From Candidatus Pacearchaeota archaeon CG10_big_fil_rev_8_21_14_0_10_34_76 (lineage in GTDB: Archaea > Nanobdellota > Nanobdellia > Pacearchaeales > GW2011-AR1), in the NCBI GenBank assembly GCA_002763075.1, contig PFDB01000017.1:19745-83744 (forward strand): a DNA stretch of 64,000 bases, in the 5' to 3' direction. Within the stretch, counting starts at the first letter, position 1. Every line of letters begins with the position of its first letter. This document shows positions 1,302 through 12,266 of this stretch, in pieces. Position numbers and translations under genes: made by a program. The notes below the pieces were generated by a model that was not told where the DNA came from, searched no databases, and saw only the letters and a program-made list of their open reading frames with translations.

Positions 1302-1508
1302 ATGCATAGTTTACAGCCAAAACACTCCAAATTGAAACCCGAAGAGGTCGAAGAACTAATTAAAGAGTTAAATATTTCTGTCGGACAATTACCTAAAATA
1401 AAAACAACAGACAGTTGCCTTCCAGAGAAATGTGCGAGGGGAGATGTTGTTAAGATTGAAAGAAAATTTGATGAAAAAACTAGATTCTATTACAGGGTTG
1501 TATCATGA
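1302..1508 (+). CDS. rpoH: DNA-directed RNA polymerase subunit H (Rpo5)
   Basis: 68 aa with LPKIKTTD and GDVVKIERK...YYRVV, matching the archaeal RpoH/Rpb5 C-terminal domain. Its stop overlaps the rpoB start (ATGA), and it sits at the head of the rpo operon. Confidence 0.85.
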   Translation: MHSLQPKHSKLKPEEVEELIKELNISVGQLPKIKTTDSCLPEKCARGDVVKIERKFDEKTRFYYRVVS

Positions 1509-4500
1509 AAAAACATATTTTAATTGAGAAGTATTTGAAACAGCATTCGTTAGTTGAGTCTAACGTTATTAGCTTTGATAATTTTATTAATAATAGGATA
1601 CAACAGATTGCTGACGAAATTAATGAAGTGGCTAGCAATGAAGATGTTGAGATAAAGCTTGGAAAAATAAAAGTTGGAAAGCCAGAAGTAATTGAAGCTG
1701 ATGGAAGTGTTAGTATCATCACTCCTATTGAAGCAAGATTAAGGCAACTCACATATTCTGCTCCAGTATTCATAGAGCTTTCTGTTAAGTATGGTGAGCA
1801 AAGTGATAGTGCCGATGTTGAGATTGGAAGAATACCTGTTATGGTAAAGAGTTCTGTTTGTAATACTAGAGGAATGAGCAAGGATGAACTAAGAGGAATT
1901 TATATGGACCCATTAGACCCAGGCGGATATTTTATAATCAATGGTAATGAAAGAATTATGGTCATGGCTGAAGATCTTGCATCGAATCAGCCATTTATAG
2001 AAAATGGAAGAAATGGGTTGATGCTTAGAGTTTTCTCGCAAAGGGGGACATACAAAATTCCAACAACACTTACAGAGACAAATGAAGGAATCCTTGAGTT
2101 CACATTCAGCAGATTAAAAAATATTCCTGCGGTCGTGCTCTTGAAGGCTCTAGGACTAACAAAGGAATCAGATATCGCTAAAAATATTGGCAAGGAAGAT
2201 GACTCAATCATTGTAAATCTTTATGAGTTTGCAAGCATTCAAAATCCAGAAGATGCGTTGATGTATATCGCTGAAAAGAAGGGTATTCAAGGTACCAAGA
2301 AGGAGATACTTGACAGAACAAAAAAGAGCATAGATGATTTTTTCTTACCACATATAGGATTGGATAAAAATTCAAGGCAGGAAAAGGCACTAACTGCATG
2401 TAAACTTATCAAGCAATTCCTTAATGCACAAATCAATCCTGGTCTTAGGACCGATAAAGACCATTATGCAAATAAGAGGATAAAGCTTGCTGGAGACCTT
2501 CTTTCTGACCTGTTCAGAGTAAATCTAAATATATTTGTAAGAGATCTTCAATATTCATTACAAAAAGTTGTTAAGAGAAAGAAATTTTATTCTATAAAGA
2601 CAATTGCAAAATCAACATTATTTTCACACAGGATTGAAAGTGCTATCGCTACAGGGAGCTGGATTGGAGAAAGAACAGGAGTCACCCAAAATATGGATAA
2701 GACTAATTATATGTCTGTGCTTTCACAATTACAAAGAGTTGCAAGTATCCTTCCTGGAGAACAGGAGAACTTCATGGCAAGAACTCTTCACCCTACGCAT
2801 TATGGAAGATTCTGTCCAATTGAGACACCTGAAGGAACTGAGATTGGGTTGAGAAAAAATCTGGCCTTGTTGAGTAGAATATCCACTGCAGTGACTGACT
2901 TTAATGAGGCTGCTGCATTAAAGAAGTTTGAATCATTTGGGCTGAATAGTGAAGAAGGAAAGGATGTTTTCTTCAATGGAAGGTTTATTGGCCAGGCAAA
3001 GGATGCAGAATCATTTGTAAAAAATATAAGAGAGTTGAGAAGAAGTGGTGAGCTTCCATTTTCAATGAGTGTCAGAGATAGTAACGAAACAGATTCTATA
3101 ATGATGTCAAATGAAATCGGCAGAGTTTTGAGACCTTTGATAATCGCAGATAATGGAGTTAGTAGAATGAAGGATGAACATCTCTTACTTCTAGAACAGG
3201 ATAAGATGAAATGGCAAGACCTTTTGAAGGAAGGAGTAATTGAGTATATTGATGCTGCAGAGGAGGAGGAAGGTCTTATTGCATTGACATCTGACGAACT
3301 CGGTCCAAAACATACTCACCTGGAAGTAGATAAGATAGATTTATTCGGCCTTGTTACATCATTGGTGCCTTTTGGAAATCATGATCAATCTCCAAGACTT
3401 ATAAGAGGTAGTAAAACATACAAGCAATCCCTTGGAATATATGCGGCAAACTATTTATGCAGATTAGATACTGATGTTTCTATCCTCCATTATCCTCAGC
3501 ATCCTATTGTAAGAAGTTTTGTATATAATACTCTGGAGACATATCCTGCAGGACAAAATGTGATAGTTGCAATAATGCCATTTGAAGGATATAATGTTGA
3601 AGATGCAATTATATTGAATAAGGCTAGTGTTGATAGGGGAATGGGGAGAAGCACATACTTTAGACCTTATAGATCAAGTGAATTACATTATACTGGGAGC
3701 TTAAGAGATGAAATTGTTATACCTGATAAAGATGTTTCAGGATATAGAACTGAAGAATCATATAGGTTCCTTGAAGATGACGGAATAGCATATCCTGAAG
3801 CTGCACTTCATTCTGGAGAAGTTGCGATTGGAAAAGTCACACCTCCTAAATTCCTTTCGGAAGCTAAAGATTTAAGCATACAAGCCAAGAAAGAAGCAAG
3901 TACTGTTATAAGGCAAGAGGAAAAGGGTACAGTCGATGCAGTTTTTATTACTGCAGATAGAGAAGGAAACAAAATTGCGCAAGTAAGAACAAGAGATCTT
4001 AGAATCCCAGAACCTGGAGACAAGTATTCAACTCCTCACGGACAGAAAGGAATTATTGGATTAATTGCAGACCCTAGAGATCTTCCTTTCACTGCCAGAG
4101 GAATAAAGCCAGATCTTATATTCAATCCTCATGGAATCCCTAGTAGAATGACTGCTGGATATTTGATAGAACTTTTAGCAGGAAAATCTGGATCTGTGAG
4201 TGGACAAATTATTGATGGAACTTCATTTTCGGGAGAGAAAATAGAAGATTTTGAGAATAGACTTCAAAGTTTTGGATTCAGGTATGATGGAAAAGAAACT
4301 ATGTATGATGGTGTGACTGGAAAGAAAATGCAGGCTAAGATTTACATTGGAAATATGTATTATCTTAAGCTTAAGTATATGGTTGGAAACAGAATACACG
4401 CAAGAGCATCTGGAAAGGTTGCGTTACTTACAAGACAGCCTACTGAAGGAAGAGCGAGAGGAGGAGCCTTGAGATTGGGAGAAATGGAGCAACAAGCATT

Positions 4501-4747
4501 AGTAGGACATGGAGCTTCATTATTGCTGAAGGAAAGATATGATTCAGATAAGACTGTCCTTTATATATGCAATAAGTGTGGTAATGTAGGAATCAAAGAC
4601 AAAATAAGAAATAAAATATATTGCCCTGTTGACGGAACCAATGATGTTGAGCCCGTCGAGGTTTCATATGCATTTAAACTGCTTGTTGATGAATTGCTAG
4701 CGTTGCATATAGTAGCATCATTTGAGCTAAAGAACAAATACGAATAA
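1505..4747 (+). CDS. rpoB: DNA-directed RNA polymerase subunit B (Rpo2), unsplit
   Basis: 1080 aa. Carries second-largest-subunit motifs: GYFIINGNERIMV, RFCPIETPEG, GYNVEDAI, GDKYSTPHGQKG, PSRMTAGYLIE, RGGALRLGEMEQQAL. The C-terminal zinc ribbon reads CNKCG...CPVDG. Confidence 0.95.
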   Translation: MKKHILIEKYLKQHSLVESNVISFDNFINNRIQQIADEINEVASNEDVEIKLGKIKVGKPEVIEADGSVSIITPIEARLRQLTYSAPVFIELSVKYGEQSDSADVEIGRIPVMVKSSVCNTRGMSKDELRGIYMDPLDPGGYFIINGNERIMVMAEDLASNQPFIENGRNGLMLRVFSQRGTYKIPTTLTETNEGILEFTFSRLKNIPAVVLLKALGLTKESDIAKNIGKEDDSIIVNLYEFASIQNPEDALMYIAEKKGIQGTKKEILDRTKKSIDDFFLPHIGLDKNSRQEKALTACKLIKQFLNAQINPGLRTDKDHYANKRIKLAGDLLSDLFRVNLNIFVRDLQYSLQKVVKRKKFYSIKTIAKSTLFSHRIESAIATGSWIGERTGVTQNMDKTNYMSVLSQLQRVASILPGEQENFMARTLHPTHYGRFCPIETPEGTEIGLRKNLALLSRISTAVTDFNEAAALKKFESFGLNSEEGKDVFFNGRFIGQAKDAESFVKNIRELRRSGELPFSMSVRDSNETDSIMMSNEIGRVLRPLIIADNGVSRMKDEHLLLLEQDKMKWQDLLKEGVIEYIDAAEEEEGLIALTSDELGPKHTHLEVDKIDLFGLVTSLVPFGNHDQSPRLIRGSKTYKQSLGIYAANYLCRLDTDVSILHYPQHPIVRSFVYNTLETYPAGQNVIVAIMPFEGYNVEDAIILNKASVDRGMGRSTYFRPYRSSELHYTGSLRDEIVIPDKDVSGYRTEESYRFLEDDGIAYPEAALHSGEVAIGKVTPPKFLSEAKDLSIQAKKEASTVIRQEEKGTVDAVFITADREGNKIAQVRTRDLRIPEPGDKYSTPHGQKGIIGLIADPRDLPFTARGIKPDLIFNPHGIPSRMTAGYLIELLAGKSGSVSGQIIDGTSFSGEKIEDFENRLQSFGFRYDGKETMYDGVTGKKMQAKIYIGNMYYLKLKYMVGNRIHARASGKVALLTRQPTEGRARGGALRLGEMEQQALVGHGASLLLKERYDSDKTVLYICNKCGNVGIKDKIRNKIYCPVDGTNDVEPVEVSYAFKLLVDELLALHIVASFELKNKYE

Positions 4748-4748
4748 A

Positions 4749-7700
4749 ATGGAAGATATAATAAGAAAAAAAGTAAAGGCATTAAGGTTTAACTTGATTA
4801 GCCCAGAAACAATCAAAAAAATAAGCGTAGCTAAGATTGTGACTCCAGAGTTATATGATGTTGATGGATTCCCAGTAGATGGAGGATTAATGGACTTAAG
4901 ACTTGGAGCTATAGACCCAGGAGTAAGATGTCGAACAGATGGTGCTACTATGAAAGACTGCCCAGGTTATCCTGGAACAATTGAGTTAGCAAGACCCATA
5001 TTACATATAAAATATGTTCCTTTGATTGAGCTCTTTTTGAGAAGCTTTTGCCAGAATTGTTCTAAGTTAACACTTGATGAACACAAACAGGCTGATTTGA
5101 CTCCAGTTGAAAGAGCTAAAAAAGCACGTGATAAGAAAAAGTGTCCTCATTGTGGAGAGCCTCAAGAGAAAGTTAAGCTTGAGAAGCCAATCACTTTTAT
5201 GATGGGGAAGAGGAGAATATTCCCTACTGAGATAAGAGAGATGCTTGTCAAAATCAAGGATGAGGAAATGAGAAGGATTGGTGTGAATTCCAAAACATGC
5301 AGACCTGAATGGGCAATTCTTTCACAATTAATAGTGCCTAGTGTAAATGTAAGACCGTCTATTACTCTTGAATCTGGAGAGAGAAGTGAAGACGACCTCA
5401 CTCATAAATTGTCTGATATAATCAGGGCAAATCAAAGATTGTGGGAGAACCTAAATGCTGGTGCTCCGGAAGTTATTATTGAAGATCTTTGGGATCTTTT
5501 GCAGTATCATGTGACTACATATTTTGATAATAATACAACGAGAATCCCACCTGCAAGACACAGGTCAGGTCAGCCTTTGAAAACAATAACTGAAAGAATA
5601 AAGGGAAAAGAAGGAAGAATAAGAAAAAATCTTGCTGGAAAGAGAGTCAATTTCTCTGGAAGAACTGTTGTTTCTCCTGATCCTTATTTAAAATTGAATG
5701 AAGTTGGAGTCCCATATGATGTTGCGACAATAATAACTGTTGCTGAAAATGTTACAACTGCTAATATTGAGAGAATGAAAAATTTGATAAGGCAAGGAAG
5801 CGAACATCCCGGCGCTAATTATGTGATGAGGCCAGATGGAAAGAAAAAGAAAATCACAAATGAACTTAAGGAAGAGTTATGTAATGAAATACAACCAGGA
5901 TATAAGATTGAGAGACACCTACAAGATGGAGATGTTGTTCTTTTCAATAGACATCCGTCATTGCATAAGCAAAGCCTGATGGCACATTATGTAAGGGTCC
6001 TTCCACATAGAACATTTAGGATACATCCTGCTTCTGCATTCCCTTACAATGCTGACTTTGATGGTGATGAGGTTAACATTCACTCCCCTCAAACAGAGGA
6101 AGCTAGGGCTGAAGCCATTAAGCTTCTTGATTTGAACCACAACATAATTTCTGGCAAGAATGGAATAAACCTTATAGGATGTATTGCAGATGCAGTTACA
6201 GGGCTTTATATGCTCGGTAGAGAAGATTTTTCTAAGGCTTATGCTCAACAATTATTATACAGCACGGGAATTGTAAGTAATCTCAAGAAGAAAACTGTAA
6301 GTGGGAAAGAAATATTTGAAGAAATACTTCCAAAAGATGCTAATATCAAAATTCCTAATGAATTAACTGGAGAAAAAACATTTGGAGTGGAAGAGGGAGT
6401 TATGGTTAAGGAGATAGATAAGGCATGTGGAAGACAAGAAGCAATAAATTCTATAACTAGAGCATTTACCCTAGGGACTACACATCTATCTAGGTCTGGA
6501 TATACATTGTCTATTCAGGATGTTAACGTATCTTCAAAGGTGAAAGAGATTACTAAAGAAATAATAGAAAAAGCTGAAAAGAAGACACAACAGATAATCG
6601 AGGATGCTAAGTCTGGAACCTTGGCTTTGATTCCTGGAAAGAGTGTTGATGAAAGCAAGGAATTGAAAATTTCTCAGGCACTTAATGAAGTTAGATCTGA
6701 AGTTGGTAAGGTTGTGAAAGCCAATTTCCCTGCAGAAGGAAATGTTAGCAAAATGATTACTTCTGGAGCTGCGGGAAGTCTTCTTAATATCACCCAGATA
6801 GGATGTTGTGTGGGACAACAAATTTTGTGGAATAAGCGTATTGGATTTGGATATTCTGGAAGGACATTATCATTCTTCCAAAAAGGAGATATTGGAGCCG
6901 ATGCAAGAGGATTTATCAAATCATCATATTCTGACGGACTTAATCCAAAAGAATTTTTCTTTGGCGCAATTACTGCAAGAGACGGATTAATGGATACTGC
7001 ATTGAGAACTCCTAAATCTGGATATTTGTATAGAAGACTTGTAAGCGCATTGCAAGATTTAAGAGCAGAATATGACGGAACAGTTAGAGATGCATCAGGG
7101 AATATTATCCAGTTCCTTTATGGTGGAGATGGTGAAGATGTTGCAGGACTTCATCTTAATAAGAAAGTATCTCCTGGTGAATCTGTTGGAGTTATTACTG
7201 CACAAAGTTTTGGTGAGGCTTCTACTCAAATGGTACTTAATGTATTCCACTCTGCTGGAGTTGCTGAAATGCAGGTTACACTTGGACTGCCAAGACTTAT
7301 AGAGATATTTGATGCTAGGAAGAAACCCTCTACACCCTTGATGGAATTATATCTTGATAAAGATTCCAATAATGAAAAGGATGCAAGAGTCATCGCAGAG
7401 AAAATCAAGGAAGTGAAATTAAAGGAAATTGCAAAAGAGATATCCATGGATTTCTCTGGAAAGAAACTTGAAATAGAAATTGATAGTAACGCATTGAAGG
7501 CTGTTCATGTTGGAATACAAAAAATAGCAGACAGACTTATTGAGAAAGGATTTGTTGTAAAGGTTAAGGATAACAATCTTCTTATAGTAAATCTTGGTGA
7601 GCTGAACTTTAGAGAGATGTATAAAATAAAAGAGAAAATGAAGGATACAATAATCTCTGGGCTTAAGAACATTTCTCAGGTTGTCGTAGCTAAAAGAGAT

Positions 7701-8165
7701 TCAGATTATGTTATCCTGACTGCAGGAAGTAATCTTTCAGAAGTAATGGAAATTAAAGGGATAGACAGAAACAGAGTCTCTTCAAATGATATTCATGAGA
7801 CTGCAGCTGTTCTTGGAATTGAGGCTGCCAGAGAAACAATCATGAACGAGATAAAAAAAGTTATTGAAAGTCAAGGTCTTGATATTAATATAAGGCATCT
7901 TGATCTTATTGCGGATGCAATGACATCTTTAGGAGTTGTTAAAGGAGTTACAAGAATGGGAATTGTTTCTGAGAAAACAAGTGTATTTGCAAGAGCTGCA
8001 TTCGAAACACCTGACAAAGAATTTGTGAATGCTACTATACAGGGAAAGAAAGATGATTTAGCGTCGGTAATTGAGAATATAATGCTTAACCAACCTGTTC
8101 CAATTGGTACAGGACTTCCAGGATTGTTGGTTAAAGTGACTGGCCCTCTTGTAAAAAAGAAATAA
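4749..8165 (+). CDS. rpoA: DNA-directed RNA polymerase largest subunit with A' and A'' (Rpo1N+Rpo1C) parts in one ORF
   Basis: 1138 aa continuous ORF. It holds the A' signatures (zinc-binding N-terminus, RVNFSGRTVVSPDP, active site NADFDGDE, bridge helix ARDGLMDTALRTPKSGYLYRRL). It then runs directly into the A'' trigger-loop signature GVITAQSFGEASTQMVLNVFHSAGV. Confidence 0.9.
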   Translation: MEDIIRKKVKALRFNLISPETIKKISVAKIVTPELYDVDGFPVDGGLMDLRLGAIDPGVRCRTDGATMKDCPGYPGTIELARPILHIKYVPLIELFLRSFCQNCSKLTLDEHKQADLTPVERAKKARDKKKCPHCGEPQEKVKLEKPITFMMGKRRIFPTEIREMLVKIKDEEMRRIGVNSKTCRPEWAILSQLIVPSVNVRPSITLESGERSEDDLTHKLSDIIRANQRLWENLNAGAPEVIIEDLWDLLQYHVTTYFDNNTTRIPPARHRSGQPLKTITERIKGKEGRIRKNLAGKRVNFSGRTVVSPDPYLKLNEVGVPYDVATIITVAENVTTANIERMKNLIRQGSEHPGANYVMRPDGKKKKITNELKEELCNEIQPGYKIERHLQDGDVVLFNRHPSLHKQSLMAHYVRVLPHRTFRIHPASAFPYNADFDGDEVNIHSPQTEEARAEAIKLLDLNHNIISGKNGINLIGCIADAVTGLYMLGREDFSKAYAQQLLYSTGIVSNLKKKTVSGKEIFEEILPKDANIKIPNELTGEKTFGVEEGVMVKEIDKACGRQEAINSITRAFTLGTTHLSRSGYTLSIQDVNVSSKVKEITKEIIEKAEKKTQQIIEDAKSGTLALIPGKSVDESKELKISQALNEVRSEVGKVVKANFPAEGNVSKMITSGAAGSLLNITQIGCCVGQQILWNKRIGFGYSGRTLSFFQKGDIGADARGFIKSSYSDGLNPKEFFFGAITARDGLMDTALRTPKSGYLYRRLVSALQDLRAEYDGTVRDASGNIIQFLYGGDGEDVAGLHLNKKVSPGESVGVITAQSFGEASTQMVLNVFHSAGVAEMQVTLGLPRLIEIFDARKKPSTPLMELYLDKDSNNEKDARVIAEKIKEVKLKEIAKEISMDFSGKKLEIEIDSNALKAVHVGIQKIADRLIEKGFVVKVKDNNLLIVNLGELNFREMYKIKEKMKDTIISGLKNISQVVVAKRDSDYVILTAGSNLSEVMEIKGIDRNRVSSNDIHETAAVLGIEAARETIMNEIKKVIESQGLDINIRHLDLIADAMTSLGVVKGVTRMGIVSEKTSVFARAAFETPDKEFVNATIQGKKDDLASVIENIMLNQPVPIGTGLPGLLVKVTGPLVKKK

Positions 8166-8235: not shown

Positions 8236-8475
8236 ATGGTTGATGAGATTAAGAATTTTATTGAAGAGCACCAAATAATATTTGGTATAAAGGAATGTCT
8301 GAAAAAATCTGACTCTGTGAAAAAAGTGTTTATTGTGAATGATTGTAGAGAGGATGTAAGAAAATTGCTGAAAGCAAATAAAATTGAATTTGAGAATCTA
8401 GAGTTTTCTAAGGGAGATGTTTCAAGCAGGATGGGACTGCCCTTTCAATGTGAAGTTTTTGGTTTAAAAAAATAA
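8236..8475 (+). CDS. rpl30e: ribosomal protein L30e (eL30) family
   Basis: 79 aa L7Ae/L30e-like pattern (IIFGIKECLKK...VKKVFIVNDCREDV...). It occupies the conserved position between rpoA and nusA. Confidence 0.7.
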   Translation: MVDEIKNFIEEHQIIFGIKECLKKSDSVKKVFIVNDCREDVRKLLKANKIEFENLEFSKGDVSSRMGLPFQCEVFGLKK

Positions 8476-8476
8476 T

Positions 8477-8893
8477 ATGACAACCACAATAAACATGCAG
8501 ACTATGAGGTATATTAATCTCTTGAGGAGAGTTGCGAGAGTTAATACTACTGATTGTTTTGTCTATAATAACGTGATAATTTATGTTGTTTCTGCTGGTG
8601 AAATGAAGAGGGCTCTTGGTGAGCGTGGAAAGAATGTTAGAGAGTTGCAAGAGATTCTTGGTAAAAAAATAAAAATTGTCAGAGAAGCAAAGGATGTAAC
8701 AGATATGCAAAGATTTATCCAAGATATTGTTGATCCTGTCAGTTTCAAATCTGTTGAGATAAGGAATGAAAATATTGTACTTACTGCTGGCGCTATAGCC
8801 AAGGCTGCACTGATTGGAAGAAATAAAAGAAGATTGATTGAGTTGAACAAAATCCTCGAAGACTATTTTGGAAAAGAATTGAAGATAATTTAA
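8477..8893 (+). CDS. nusA: archaeal NusA-like transcription termination factor (KH domains)
   Basis: 138 aa with KH-type GxxG-like segments (LGERGKNVRELQEILGKKIKIV; LIGRNKRRLIELNKIL). Conserved synteny L30e-NusA-S12. Confidence 0.75.
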   Translation: MTTTINMQTMRYINLLRRVARVNTTDCFVYNNVIIYVVSAGEMKRALGERGKNVRELQEILGKKIKIVREAKDVTDMQRFIQDIVDPVSFKSVEIRNENIVLTAGAIAKAALIGRNKRRLIELNKILEDYFGKELKII

Positions 8894-8966: not shown

Positions 8967-9389
8967 ATGGGATTAAATAATGCAAGAAAACTTCAGAAGA
9001 ATAGAAAGAAGTTTAGATGGAGCAATAAGCCTTACAAGGTGAGAATTCTTAAGCTTAGAGAGAAGTCTGATCCGTTCGGAAGATCTTGGCAGGCTAAAGG
9101 AATTGTTATAGAAAAATTTCAAAAAGAAGCAAAACAGCCAAACTCTGCTATGAGAAAATGTTGCAAGGTGCAGCTTATAAAAAATGGTATTCAAGTAGGA
9201 GCATTCATTCCAAGAAATCTTGCGCAGAAATTTGTTGATGAACATGATGAAGTCATTATTGAAAGAATTGGTGGAAAAATGGGACGTTCCAAGGGAGATA
9301 TTCCTGGAATTAGATACCAAGTAATAAAAGTTAATGACCAACCATTACATTTACTAGTTAAAGGAAAGATAGAGAAGGGAAGAAGATAA
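8967..9389 (+). CDS. rps12: 30S ribosomal protein S12 (uS12)
   Basis: 140 aa with [19 protein letters not shown]...GVAFIP-like core and the [11 protein letters not shown] motif. Confidence 0.9.
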
Positions 9390-9982
9390 TGAAACTAAAA
9401 ATATTTGGAATGTATGATGTTGAAGAGATTCAAGTGAGTGATGTTGCATTGAAGCCATATATCAATATTGATGACAGACTTCTTGTGAAATCTCATGGAA
9501 GAAATCTTGGAAAGTTTACAAGTGCAAGAGTCAATATCCTGGAGAGGCTTGCTAACCGAATCTCTGTTCCAGGACATGTAGGAAAGAAGCACAGGATAAT
9601 TACAAGCTGGGCTTCAGGAAAATACAATACTAATATGAAAACAGTTGTTGAAGTGCTTAAGATCATTGAGAACAAGAAAAAAGACAATCCATTGCAAATT
9701 CTTGTGAAAGCTATTGAATCCTGTTCTCCAAGAGATGAGATTACTACAATTGAATATGGTGGAGCAAGATACCCTCAGGCTGTGGACGTTTCCCCTTCAA
9801 GAAGAGTTAATCTTGCAATAAGATGGCTTGTGCAGGGAGCATACCAAAAATCGTTTGGTAAGAAAAGAAAGATGGCTGAAACTCTTGCTAATGAGATAAT
9901 ACTAGCCTCTGAAGGAAATATGGAGAGCTATGCTATGCAGAAAAAAAATGAATCTGAGAAGCAAGCAGATGCAGCAAGATAA
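9389..9982 (+). CDS. rps7: 30S ribosomal protein S7 (uS7)
   Basis: 197 aa ending in the typical archaeal S7 pattern (RRVNLAIRWLVQGA, ...KKNESEKQADAAR). Its start overlaps the S12 stop. Confidence 0.9.
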   Translation: MKLKIFGMYDVEEIQVSDVALKPYINIDDRLLVKSHGRNLGKFTSARVNILERLANRISVPGHVGKKHRIITSWASGKYNTNMKTVVEVLKIIENKKKDNPLQILVKAIESCSPRDEITTIEYGGARYPQAVDVSPSRRVNLAIRWLVQGAYQKSFGKKRKMAETLANEIILASEGNMESYAMQKKNESEKQADAAR

Positions 9983-10091: not shown

Positions 10092-12266
10092 ATGGCAACA
10101 GACGACAAAACAGAAAAAGTAAAGAAACTTATGACTCAACCTGAAAAAATTAGGAATATAGCTATAGCTGCGCATATTGACCATGGGAAAACAACATTCT
10201 CAGACAATCTTCTTGCAGGAGCTGGAATGATGTCAGAGGAACTTGCAGGAAAAGCAAGAGTACTTGATTTCCATGCAGATGAAATGGCAAGAGGAATAAC
10301 AATTGATTCTGCAAGTGTTAGTATGGTTCATACTACTGACGGTGAAGATCACCTTATCAATCTTATTGATACTCCTGGGCATGTTGATTTCGGTGGAGAT
10401 GTCACGAGGGCGATGAGGGCTGTTGATGGATGCATTGTTTTGGTATGTGCTTCTGAAGGAATTATGCCCCAGACAGAAACTGTTTTAAGACAAGCTCTTA
10501 AGGAAAGAGTTAGACCTGTTTTGTTCATAAATAAAGTTGATAGATTAATCAAAGAAGTAAAGTTAACTCCTGAAGAGATGCAGAAAAGATTTATCAATGT
10601 CATCGGTAAAGTGAATGATCTTATTGAAAAAATAGCAGAACCTGAATTTAAGGAAAAATTTAAGGTTAATGTTCAGGATGGAAGTGTCGCATTTGGAAGC
10701 GCTTACCATAAGTGGGCATTGTCTGTCCCATATATGCAGAAAAAGGGGTTAACATTCAAGAATATAATTGATGCTTATAATGATGGAGAAGATTCTTATA
10801 AAGCACTTTCCAAAAAAGCTCCATTGCATGAAGTTGTCCTGAATATGGTTAACAGACATCATCCCAATCCTACAGATGCTCAGGCATATAGAATTCCAAA
10901 AATCTGGCATGGGGATTCTGAAAGCGAAGTTGGGAAAGATTTAACTTCTTGCAATCCAGATGGAGAACCTGCATTTGTATGCACTAAGATTGTGGTAGAT
11001 AAAAATGCTGGAGAAATAGCTACGGGAAGACTTTTTTCAGGAACATTGAGGCCTGGAGATGCAGTCTATATGAATCTTGCTAAAAGAAAGTTAAACCTAC
11101 AACAAGTGTCTATCTATAAAGGTGCTCAAAGAATACAAGTTGATAAGGTTGTAGCAGGCAATATTGTTGGTCTTGTTGGATTGAAAGGTGTTTTTGCTGG
11201 TGAGACAGTCAGCACTAAACAGATTGAACCTTTTGAGGCAATCAAACATATTTTTGAACCAGTTGTTACAAAGAGCATTGAAGCTACCAAAGCAGCTGAC
11301 CTTCCAAAACTTGTGGAGATATTGAGACAAGTGGGAAAGGAAGATCCTAGCATTCAGATTGAAATAAATGAGGAGACTGGAGAAAATCTTATTTCTGGAA
11401 TGGGAGAACTACATTTAGAAATAATTGAAAATAGAATCAAAACAGAAAAGGGCCTTAATGTAAAAACTGGTGCACCTATTGTTGTGTATAGAGAAACCGT
11501 TTCTAAAGAAAGCCCAATTATGGAAGCAAGAACTCCTAATGGACACAATGTATTTCAATTTAGTATTGAATCTTTGGAAGATGAAGTTCATAAGAAGATA
11601 ATTTCAGAAGAAATCCCAGAAGGAAGAATGAAGAAGAAATCTGAAGAAATCTGGAAGAAGCTTGAAGAAGGAGGAATGAGCTCTGATGAGGCAAGACAAG
11701 TAAGAGAAATATATAAAGGAAATATATTCGAGGATAGAACAAGAGGTATTGTGCTTCTTGGTGAAATTATAGATTCAATAATGGATGGATGGAAACTTGT
11801 TATTGATGGAGGTCCACTTGCAAAAGAACCTATGATGAAGACAAAGTTTATAATTCATGATGCAAAAATTCATACAGATCATATGCATAGGGGTCCTGCT
11901 CAGATATATCCTTCTGTAAGAAAAGGAATGTTTGAGACAATGCAAAAAGCGGGGGCTTCGTTGCTTGAACCTATACAAACACACCTTGTGGAAGCACCAG
12001 TAGACTTCATGGGGGCAATAACTGCACTAATATCTACAAAGAGAGGGGTTCTTGAAGATGTGCAACAGGATGAGGCTGGAATAAGCATAACTGCAAAGAT
12101 GCCTGTAAGTGAAATGATTGGATGGAGTAATGATCTGAGAAGCAGGACGGAAGGAAGAGGAGTTTCTAGCTTAATTGACCAGAATTATCAAAAACTTCCT
12201 GGAGAGCTACAAGAGAATGCAATCAGAAAAATCAGAGAAAGAAAGGGATTGAAAGAAAACCAGTAA
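10092..12266 (+). CDS. fusA: translation elongation factor 2 (aEF-2)
   Basis: 724 aa with GTPase motifs AHIDHGKTT, DTPGHVDF and NKVDR. EF-2 domain IV carries the HxDxxHRG diphthamide-site motif (HTDHMHRGPAQ). Confidence 0.95.
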   Translation: MATDDKTEKVKKLMTQPEKIRNIAIAAHIDHGKTTFSDNLLAGAGMMSEELAGKARVLDFHADEMARGITIDSASVSMVHTTDGEDHLINLIDTPGHVDFGGDVTRAMRAVDGCIVLVCASEGIMPQTETVLRQALKERVRPVLFINKVDRLIKEVKLTPEEMQKRFINVIGKVNDLIEKIAEPEFKEKFKVNVQDGSVAFGSAYHKWALSVPYMQKKGLTFKNIIDAYNDGEDSYKALSKKAPLHEVVLNMVNRHHPNPTDAQAYRIPKIWHGDSESEVGKDLTSCNPDGEPAFVCTKIVVDKNAGEIATGRLFSGTLRPGDAVYMNLAKRKLNLQQVSIYKGAQRIQVDKVVAGNIVGLVGLKGVFAGETVSTKQIEPFEAIKHIFEPVVTKSIEATKAADLPKLVEILRQVGKEDPSIQIEINEETGENLISGMGELHLEIIENRIKTEKGLNVKTGAPIVVYRETVSKESPIMEARTPNGHNVFQFSIESLEDEVHKKIISEEIPEGRMKKKSEEIWKKLEEGGMSSDEARQVREIYKGNIFEDRTRGIVLLGEIIDSIMDGWKLVIDGGPLAKEPMMKTKFIIHDAKIHTDHMHRGPAQIYPSVRKGMFETMQKAGASLLEPIQTHLVEAPVDFMGAITALISTKRGVLEDVQQDEAGISITAKMPVSEMIGWSNDLRSRTEGRGVSSLIDQNYQKLPGELQENAIRKIRERKGLKENQ

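Follow-up and report, generated by a model that had tools for sequence, protein, structure and literature searches.

A fused largest-subunit gene (rpoA, A'+A'') in the RNA polymerase operon of a Pacearchaeota genome and its probable origin by in-frame deletion

The rpoA gene in the analysed stretch of Pacearchaeota DNA (64,000 nucleotides, referred to below as the window) occupies positions 4749 to 8165 of the plus strand and runs uninterrupted from ATG to TAA, encoding a protein of 1138 amino acids in which the A' and A'' parts of the largest RNA polymerase subunit are joined. We put at roughly 90% the probability that it serves an archaeal RNA polymerase of the usual multi-subunit kind as its functional largest subunit (Rpo1/A), the A' and A'' parts having been secondarily fused by an in-frame deletion. 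The fusion is real, yet it has already been published for this lineage (Da Cunha et al. 2017, PMC5484517); what is added here is its presence throughout an order (nine families), a seam that appears to derive from a deletion of about 56 codons of tail and head, and the fusion of rpoB as well. The gene should be annotated as full-length fused rpoA (A'+A''), most database labels reading subunit A', and its neighbour rpoB as fused B''+B'.

Rpb1 domains 1, 2, 3, 4 and 5 all lie in order on the protein (Pfam, E-values 4.8e-78 to 1.4e-10), and the NCBIfam equivalogs match residues 5 to about 800 (A') and 802–1123 (A'', TIGR02389), bearing out the initial annotation's statement that A' and A'' share one uninterrupted 1138-amino-acid frame. 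With 1001.5 bits the A' model NF006336 clears its cut-off of 819. The A'' model reaches 383 bits and falls short of its full-length cut-off, 420.65, the reason being that its profile positions 1–35 are missing from the protein. The catalytic metal-binding motif NADFDGD (6048–6068, plus strand; residues 434–440) is invariant across an alignment of 47 homologues, and the bridge helix ARDGLMDTALRTPKSGYLYRRL... (6975–7061, plus strand; residues 743–771) and the trigger loop (residues 822–854) are invariant or nearly so in the same 47 sequences. The A''-type part, which includes the trigger-loop region, starts with SPGESVG...LGLPRLIEIF (7170–7310, plus strand; residues 808–854), the block SPGESVG...FHSAGV within it covering residues 808–838 (nucleotides 7170–7262).

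The surrounding operon has the gene order rpoH-rpoB-rpoA-(79-aa ORF)-nusA-S12-S7-EF2. Its first gene, rpoH (Rpo5/H; 1302–1508, plus strand; Pfam RNA_pol_Rpb5_C, E = 9.2e-17), overlaps at its end the start of rpoB (1505–4747, plus strand). The latter encodes 1080 amino acids with Pfam Rpb2 domains 1–7 and in a single frame matches the B'' model at residues 2–469 and the B' model at 488–1078; the B''/B' junction region, FNEAAALKKFESFGLNSEEGKDVFF (2900–2974, plus strand; residues 466–490), is in frame and contains no stop. The 79-amino-acid ORF between rpoA and nusA (8236–8475, plus strand) has no Pfam match at E ≤ 0.01 and occupies the usual rpl30e position, its identity being by position only. 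It is followed by genes for a NusA-like KH-domain protein (8477–8893, plus strand), S12 (8967–9389), S7 (9389–9982) and EF-2 (10092–12266), all recognised by Pfam. Base composition is uniform over the region, and rpoK is located elsewhere in the genome, on contig C11. In its domains, its catalytic elements and its operon context alike, the gene is an archaeal Rpo1/A.

At the DNA level there are no stop codons, no methionine codons and no spacer between nucleotides 6980 and 7340, and residues 788–827 show neither the stop that follows the A' tail nor the separate A'' start of a canonical split; the initial annotation had claimed the same for positions 7100–7230, and this held on inspection of the DNA. 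The last conserved A'-type segment, QFLYGGDGEDVAGL (7110–7151, plus strand; residues 788–801), contains a "DV(S/A)" with which, in split relatives, the A' tail begins ("IDVSKSE..."). It is followed by the seam or linker HLNKKV (7152–7169, plus strand; residues 802–807), which stands in for about 56 residues, namely the remaining A' tail, the stop, the spacer, the A'' methionine and the N-terminal head of A''. The histidine at position 802 in this linker is invariant in the 47 close homologues. Linker length is 6 residues by motif and 10 between alignment blocks, and the figure of about 8 given initially is a fair one; so is that of about 130 amino acids for the overall shortening, which is 115 relative to a split relative (879+374 aa) and 134–159 relative to the listed Sulfolobus and Thermococcus chain lengths. 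Fifty-six of the 115 missing residues fall exactly at the seam. We take the lost A' tail and A'' head to be what archaea have kept of the Rpb1 "foot" region. An AlphaFold2 monomer model built on the 47-sequence alignment (mean pLDDT 50.7, pTM 0.31, with pLDDT below 50 across most of residues 659–848) is too poor for linker geometry.

The fusion is not peculiar to this genome but extends through its order, which would be Pacearchaeales to judge by the source labels of homologues. Nearly all of the best 120 database homologues are about 1140 amino acids long, with five domains each, and the frame is continuous across query residue 800 in about 66 informative genomes of the order. The survey of related MAGs that the initial annotation had proposed found the fusion throughout the order: all 46 loci checked on DNA, from nine families (f1, f2 and f97–f103), are fused, with 10–13 residues between blocks and a common compact seam, YG.DG.DVS.LH...PGEA.G. 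Outside the order but in the same class, all 40 classifiable loci are split by TAA or TGA, again as checked on DNA. Their A' tails are 20–26 amino acids long (outliers 13 and 44) and homologous to one another ("IDVSKSE.GK.NV.RII"), as are their A'' heads of roughly 45 amino acids ("M..EYK..LP.KI.EE...K.KKI.E.V..EY"), and both tail and head are missing from the window RpoA. The fused or split state was scored by inspection of the DNA, and open-frame length was discarded as evidence; candidate extra fusions outside the order, with open frames of 1200–1330 amino acids, were ruled out by real stops on the DNA, as in L031, where a TAA stands directly before an in-frame ATG, and in G018, G040 and G105. 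Among the split loci is also a genome that carries A' and A'' 70 kb apart.

The state of rpoB is less uniform. It is split in relatives outside the order, and within the order it is polymorphic, with at least four changes and both states found inside single families; the B''/B' junction consists of a stop and restart in f98, f101, part of f2 and part of f99.

The initial annotation had offered two alternatives, a secondary fusion in a reduced genome and a lineage that never split the gene, and had proposed an Rpo1 phylogeny. Trees were made from RpoA itself (quick LG+G4 search, SH-aLRT support) and do not include the split A'/A'' of other phyla. In them the fused sequences form one clade of 46 that includes the window RpoA (SH-aLRT 100) as well as L005, L008 and L011, labelled Candidatus Pacearchaeota, and one state change is enough to account for them. 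This clade has a single split clade as its partner (support 97) within the class (support 98); seven further split lineages lie outside. Such nesting of the fused order among split lineages is our best estimate and is not proven: when all split lineages of the class are constrained to one clade with the fused order outside, the AU test gives a delta lnL of 43 and p-AU = 0.109, and the alternative is not rejected. Since the split relatives keep the tail and head and the fused clade nests among split lineages, the history these comparisons support is one secondary fusion event, in which about 56 codons were deleted.

We regard it as very unlikely that the single ORF is instead an ancestral unsplit state whose inter-block segment was lost later. 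Unsplit A is known from other archaea, the AU result just given leaves room for such a history, and the inter-block segment can be lost from unsplit proteins, as the compact P0201 and P0222 show. The best tree and the junction anatomy nevertheless favour the first of the two alternatives, and in the split relatives the break falls where it does in Thermococcus and Sulfolobus; a never-split lineage would need either an independent, identical split or a position for this DPANN order outside all split archaea. In the tree, moreover, the class excludes the representatives of Korarchaeota and Bathyarchaeota; the 150 best representatives contained named members of those two groups and no named Thaumarchaeota. 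Da Cunha et al. 2017 (PMC5484517) likewise concluded that the fusion is "secondary".

It is extremely improbable that a native A'/A'' pair was displaced by an rpoA already unsplit when it arrived from a mobile element or a different lineage. Nothing specific speaks for it beyond the existence of compact single-chain forms in unrelated lineages (P0123, P0124 and P0157), and against it the fused clade has the split sequences of its own class as its sister, not other compact or unsplit forms, the gene sits in its native operon with no shift in base composition, and the "DVS" remnant of the A' tail is kept at the seam.

A stop or frameshift missed at the junction, or a chimeric contig, has nothing positive in its favour, and we give it a negligible chance. 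Logan contigs from four sequencing runs (X1, X2, X3 and X6) span positions 7100–7230 with no gaps, no indels and no joints, and word depth in X2 is about 106 over the junction; the runs were examined as contigs, from which rare variants are dropped, and the result, which answers the initial annotation's concern about a masked stop, frameshift or indel at 7100–7230, holds for the consensus sequence. The X6 strain, from another study and year (2024), differs by ten listed substitutions, nine synonymous and one V>I, at residues 696–741 and 834–899, on either side of the seam. An artefact is refuted at the level of the consensus sequence by these runs, by the mostly synonymous strain differences flanking the seam, by the same seam in 46 independent loci and more than 100 database proteins (NCBI, JGI, ENA and Logan), and by the invariant linker histidine.

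The secondary fusion most probably came about as follows. A single in-frame deletion would have joined neighbouring rpoA' and rpoA'' genes in an ancestor of the order; measured against the nearest split relatives it amounts to about 56 codons. Lost with it would have been most of the C-terminal tail of A' and its stop codon, the spacer, and the start codon of A'' together with an N-terminal head of roughly 45 residues. A linker of 6–10 residues now tethers the bridge-helix module to that of the trigger loop, all catalytic elements are kept, and the product would be one co-translated polypeptide, with 1:1 stoichiometry and no A'/A'' assembly step; that such a protein is produced and acts as one chain is what we infer from the gene. 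The fused state has since stayed fixed under purifying selection, and the same lineage would afterwards have fused B'' and B' repeatedly by simple stop loss. Streamlining of the genome or of its proteins may have been the driving force.

Arguments on where Archaea are rooted and how eukaryotes arose have drawn on the A'/A'' split as a rare genomic character (Da Cunha et al. 2017, PMC5484517), and the weight of that character is limited by the reversibility of the split and by the route of its reversal. It is possible, at somewhat short of even odds, that in archaea with small genomes the architecture of both large-subunit genes is evolutionarily labile and not a rare, nearly irreversible character. 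If so, the order would have fused A' and A'' once, with loss of the foot remnant, and changed the B''+B' state at least four times, and compact single-chain A would have arisen on separate occasions in reduced eukaryotic Pol III and in at least three further archaeal lineages. Whether RpoA and RpoB are split or fused would then be of little use as a "rare genomic change" in rooting the archaeal tree, and an archaeal RNA polymerase would be able to work without the tail/head (foot-remnant) module. The footless fused enzyme is, besides, a natural experiment, one that suggests an RNA polymerase can do without the A' tail and the A'' head.

Among known systems the closest is "a secondary fusion in Pacearchaeota", so named in the text of Da Cunha et al. 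(2017, PLoS Genet 13:e1006810; PMC5484517) and covered by their S29 Fig, with the taxa Pacearchaea AR1 and AR19. Lineage type, gene and event are the same, with one ORF over the canonical split site, a reading of the fusion as secondary and a setting in fast-evolving small-genome archaea, and there is no essential difference from the window rpoA, whose close homologues also carry Pacearchaeota labels. In a literature search for a DPANN-wide description of the rpoA fusion this was the only report found. The fusion is order-wide and already in print, and so is not new; a fusion both common and documented is what the initial annotation itself had named as refuting its case.

Its premise that described archaea all encode A as two genes is also wrong for Thaumarchaeota, Korarchaeota and Bathyarchaeota: unsplit A has long been known from the first two, and fused Bathyarchaea sequences have been mentioned. 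These proteins resemble the window RpoA in being one polypeptide with A' and A'' parts. Our direct comparison covers Korarchaeota and Bathyarchaeota, with no Thaumarchaeota sequence, and uses named full-length RpoA proteins recovered by the homologue search, which are 1268–1339 amino acids long with 82–88 residues between blocks, whereas the window RpoA has 10; their representatives P0125, P0129 and P0134 branch outside the class, whereas the window RpoA joins the class's split sequences. The 82–83 inter-block residues of unsplit Korarchaeota and Bathyarchaeota about equal the tail plus head of Thermococcus kodakarensis (27+56).

Alignment to archaeal Rpo1N/Rpo1C and to Rpb1, another check that had been proposed, mapped the junction against enzymes of both kinds; canonical split enzymes include T. 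kodakarensis 4QIW (chains A and C), Sulfolobus shibatae 2WAQ (chains A and C) and Pyrococcus furiosus 8CRO. The N-terminal block of the window protein, with the bridge helix, aligns to A' residues 802–879 of T. kodakarensis and 780–854 of Sulfolobus, and the C-terminal block to A'' from residues 57 and 63, respectively; these enzymes have two chains, and roughly 26 C-terminal residues of their A' and 56–62 N-terminal residues of their A'' lack a counterpart here. In yeast Rpb1, also a single chain, the blocks align to 798–880 and 1053–1136. The roughly 170 residues between them, presumably the foot region, and the CTD are both absent from the window RpoA.

Reduction of the same stretch is seen elsewhere. 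Microsporidian RPC1 proteins (Spraguea, Amphiamblys) have 82–83 residues between blocks; P0235 and P0198, with about 83, are microsporidian RPC1 by name and not Thaumarchaeota. P0201 and P0222, beside them, have only 7, a parallel reduction. P0124 (from a MAG labelled Nanohaloarchaeota, RLG14493.1), P0123 and P0157 are, like the window RpoA, compact single chains, of 1145–1168 amino acids with 6–18 residues between blocks, but they are only 36–45% identical to it and lie outside the Pacearchaeota clade, and their low identity and separate grouping therefore point to independent events.

The RNA polymerase operon of the window has the classic order, rpoH, rpoB, rpoA, a 79-aa ORF, a nusA-like KH gene and the genes for S12, S7 and EF-2. 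The first of these, rpoH (1302–1508), is recognized by Pfam Rpb5_C, and the 79-aa ORF (8236–8475), for which no Pfam match was found at E ≤ 0.01, occupies the usual rpl30e slot between rpoA and nusA; Rpo5/H adjoins in the operon, and the gene for Rpo6/K lies at another site in the genome (0.91 Mb, 88% complete). At 791–1300 several overlapping short ORFs give tRNA-like strings (EWPRRDLNPRH; GPEGIP repeated), and ARAGORN calls no tRNA there. Directly after rpoB lies rpoA, a single ATG-to-TAA frame of 1138 codons on the + strand (4749–8165), whose protein contains Rpb1 domains 1, 2, 3, 4 and 5 in order (Pfam) and matches both the archaeal A' equivalog (residues 5 to ~800) and the A'' equivalog TIGR02389 (residues 802–1123, profile positions 36–361 of 367; NCBIfam). 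The catalytic NADFDGD is at residues 434–440 and the bridge helix at 743–771; the last A'-type segment, QFLYGGDGEDVAGL (residues 788–801, nt 7110–7151), is followed by a linker, HLNKKV (residues 802–807, nt 7152–7169), and by the A''-type trigger-loop block, which begins at residue 808 (nt 7170). No stop, start codon or spacer is present in the DNA from 6980 to 7340, and the initial annotation, which described one A'+A'' frame without stop, restart or spacer, had read the sequence accurately.

The A'+A'' fusion is confirmed and is not an artefact. Logan contigs from four public groundwater/aquifer sequencing runs cover the seam without gaps, indels or joints, with a word depth of ~106 in run X2. 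Run X6 belongs to another study, made seven years afterwards, and holds the rpoA of a variant strain. Of the ten substitutions listed, nine are synonymous at third positions and the tenth is V>I; they flank the seam on both sides (residues 696–741 and 834–899), which is direct evidence that a single continuous frame is under purifying selection. In a search of 5.8 billion proteins, almost all of the best 120 matches have ~1140 aa and all five domains; they come from NCBI, JGI, ENA and Logan assemblies, including some contigs of 0.66–0.89 Mb. In a 47-sequence alignment His802 of the linker is invariant. The window rpoA is a complete largest subunit gene with all catalytic elements, in its native operon and under purifying selection.

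The close homologues carry the source labels Pacearchaeota, Nanoarchaeota or Woesearchaeota, which make GTDB Pacearchaeales the probable order. Across 70 sampled genomes of this order, the fused Pacearchaeota-type clade that holds the window, the frame is continuous across query residue 800 in every informative genome. The fused or split state was read from the DNA, since open-frame lengths from the genome search can cross a stop and so overstate fusions; the split relative L031, for example, has a TAA and then an ATG in the same frame, despite an apparently open frame. The survey for the same fusion gave a clear division: all 46 loci read in the order, from nine families (f1, f2 and f97–f103), are fused, and all 40 classifiable loci of the class outside the order are split, each at a true TAA or TGA stop codon. 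In the fused loci 10–13 residues separate the conserved blocks, with the common seam YG.DG.DVS.LH....PGEA.G. In the split loci A' typically runs on for 20–26 residues ("IDVSKSE.GK.NV.RII..."; two outliers have 13 and 44), and A'' begins with a separate Met and carries a ~45-residue head ("M..EYK..LP.KI.EE...K.KKI.E.V..EY").

Several other features of these loci were seen. The fused RpoA proteins of f2, f98, f102 and f103 (loci L049–L060, L067 and L068) are 35–55 aa longer than those of f1, and in some families a divergent insert near query residue 530, which is not at the split site, cuts the HMMER matches in two. Genomes G044, G139 and G108 (among loci L085–L088) have kilobase-sized interruptions within A', at query residues 428/432 and so a little upstream of NADFDGD, and G139 and G098 have another within A'' near residue 835, in the trigger loop; these interruptions look like inteins at catalytic sites. 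In G059, a single contig of 490,885 bp, A' and A'' are 70 kb apart (C1:447231–449780 and C1:376454–377413), and B' and B'' pieces of rpoB lie ~13 kb apart on opposite strands (C1:143115–144923, −, and C1:158329–159750, +), so its split subunit genes are fully unlinked.

The window RpoA is 115 residues shorter than that of L031, whose A' has 879 aa and A'' 374 aa; 56 of these residues are missing exactly at the seam, where they make up the rest of the A' tail and the A'' head, and the others are accounted for by an N-terminal extension of 25 aa and by three short indels. Alignment to solved structures maps the junction: the N block corresponds to residues 798–880 of yeast Rpb1, 802–879 of 906 in T. 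kodakarensis A' and 780–854 of 880 in Sulfolobus A', and the C block to Rpb1 1053–1136 and to the A'' of T. kodakarensis and Sulfolobus from residues 57 and 63, respectively, so the missing piece is the archaeal counterpart of Rpb1 880–1053, the "foot" region. The "DVS" that opens the A' tail survives at the Pacearchaeota-type seam. Unlike the window RpoA, unsplit RpoA from Korarchaeota and Bathyarchaeota retains 82–88 residues between the blocks, about the length of the Thermococcus tail plus head (27+56). The Pacearchaeota-type gene thus differs from split and from ancestrally unsplit forms alike by one deletion across the gene boundary.

In trees built from the conserved blocks only, with the seam left out, a branch with SH-aLRT 100 holds all fused sequences on one side, so that a single change of state suffices. 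With Rpb1-like sequences as the root, the fused clade pairs with a Woesearchaeota-type split clade (support 97) within the class (support 98); seven more split lineages, including the G059 type, branch outside this pair, and the Korarchaeota and Bathyarchaeota representatives fall outside the class. Nesting of the fused clade among split lineages is thus our best estimate, not proven, and the topology favours secondary fusion. The initial annotation had left the choice between such a fusion and a lineage that never split the gene. An ancestral unsplit rpoA is disfavoured: placing all split lineages in one clade costs 43 lnL and is not rejected by the AU test (p = 0.109), but the best tree has them otherwise, and even in that arrangement a never-split ancestry would require the same split site to have arisen independently of Euryarchaeota and Crenarchaeota. 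Secondary fusion agrees with both the nested tree and the deletion anatomy.

The rpoB gene (1505–4747, + strand, junction at 2900–2974) is also one ORF that matches both B'' and B' models, so in the window organism each of the two large subunits is encoded as one chain. Among 25 genomes checked outside Pacearchaeota, no rpoB gives one stop-free match; 22 have two matches that break at ~query residue 481–487, and in three the only match contains internal stop(s). The order itself is polymorphic when read on DNA (loci L089–L108): rpoB is fused in f1 (including the window), f97, f102, f103 and parts of f2 (G314, G333) and f99 (G315), and split in f98, f101 and the rest of f2 (G267, G309) and f99 (G303). 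The G309 junction, ...KTFK*KMVDVFY, is a TAA followed by AAA ATG in the same frame, so fusion is only one stop-codon change away. Fitch parsimony on the RpoA tree, several of whose backbone nodes are weakly supported, requires four or more changes and puts "split" at the root; the within-family contrasts in f2 and f99 are robust. The B''+B' fusion is recurrent and recent, whereas the A fusion, of the deletion type, is single and fixed.

The fused subunit would be translated as one chain of ~128 kDa, in which a 6–10-residue linker would tether the bridge-helix module to the trigger-loop module, ensuring 1:1 stoichiometry and saving one assembly step, with the tail/head module presumably dispensable. 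The cause is most likely the streamlining of genes and proteins that characterizes such 0.5–0.9-Mb genomes. The AlphaFold model (mean pLDDT 50.7) is too poor for linker geometry.

It had been supposed that all described archaea split this gene, but in Thaumarchaeota and Korarchaeota an unsplit A is textbook knowledge, and fused sequences have also been mentioned for Bathyarchaea (PMC5484517). Nor is the fusion unique to the window: it is order-wide, and Da Cunha et al. 2017 stated that "a secondary fusion" occurred "in Pacearchaeota" (PMC5484517), with Pacearchaea AR1 and AR19 appearing in the S29 alignment of that paper. The fusion was therefore already known, and the window adds a further genome to that clade. 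What we contribute is modest: a survey across the order, the anatomy of the deletion and an rpoB fusion that is polymorphic.

An exhaustive search of representatives, in which full-length proteins were ranked by block-to-block distance, found compact archaeal-type forms beyond the Pacearchaeota clade in P0124 (from a MAG labelled Nanohaloarchaeota; 18 residues), P0123 (6) and P0157 (11), none of which falls with that clade in the tree. Two further full-length proteins, P0201 and P0222, group with the microsporidian Pol III RPC1 of Spraguea lophii (P0235) and Amphiamblys (P0198). Named microsporidian RPC1 proteins have 82–83 residues between the bridge-helix and trigger-loop blocks, whereas P0201 and P0222 have 7, so reduced eukaryotes may have lost the foot in parallel. 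Shortening at this site has therefore arisen repeatedly.
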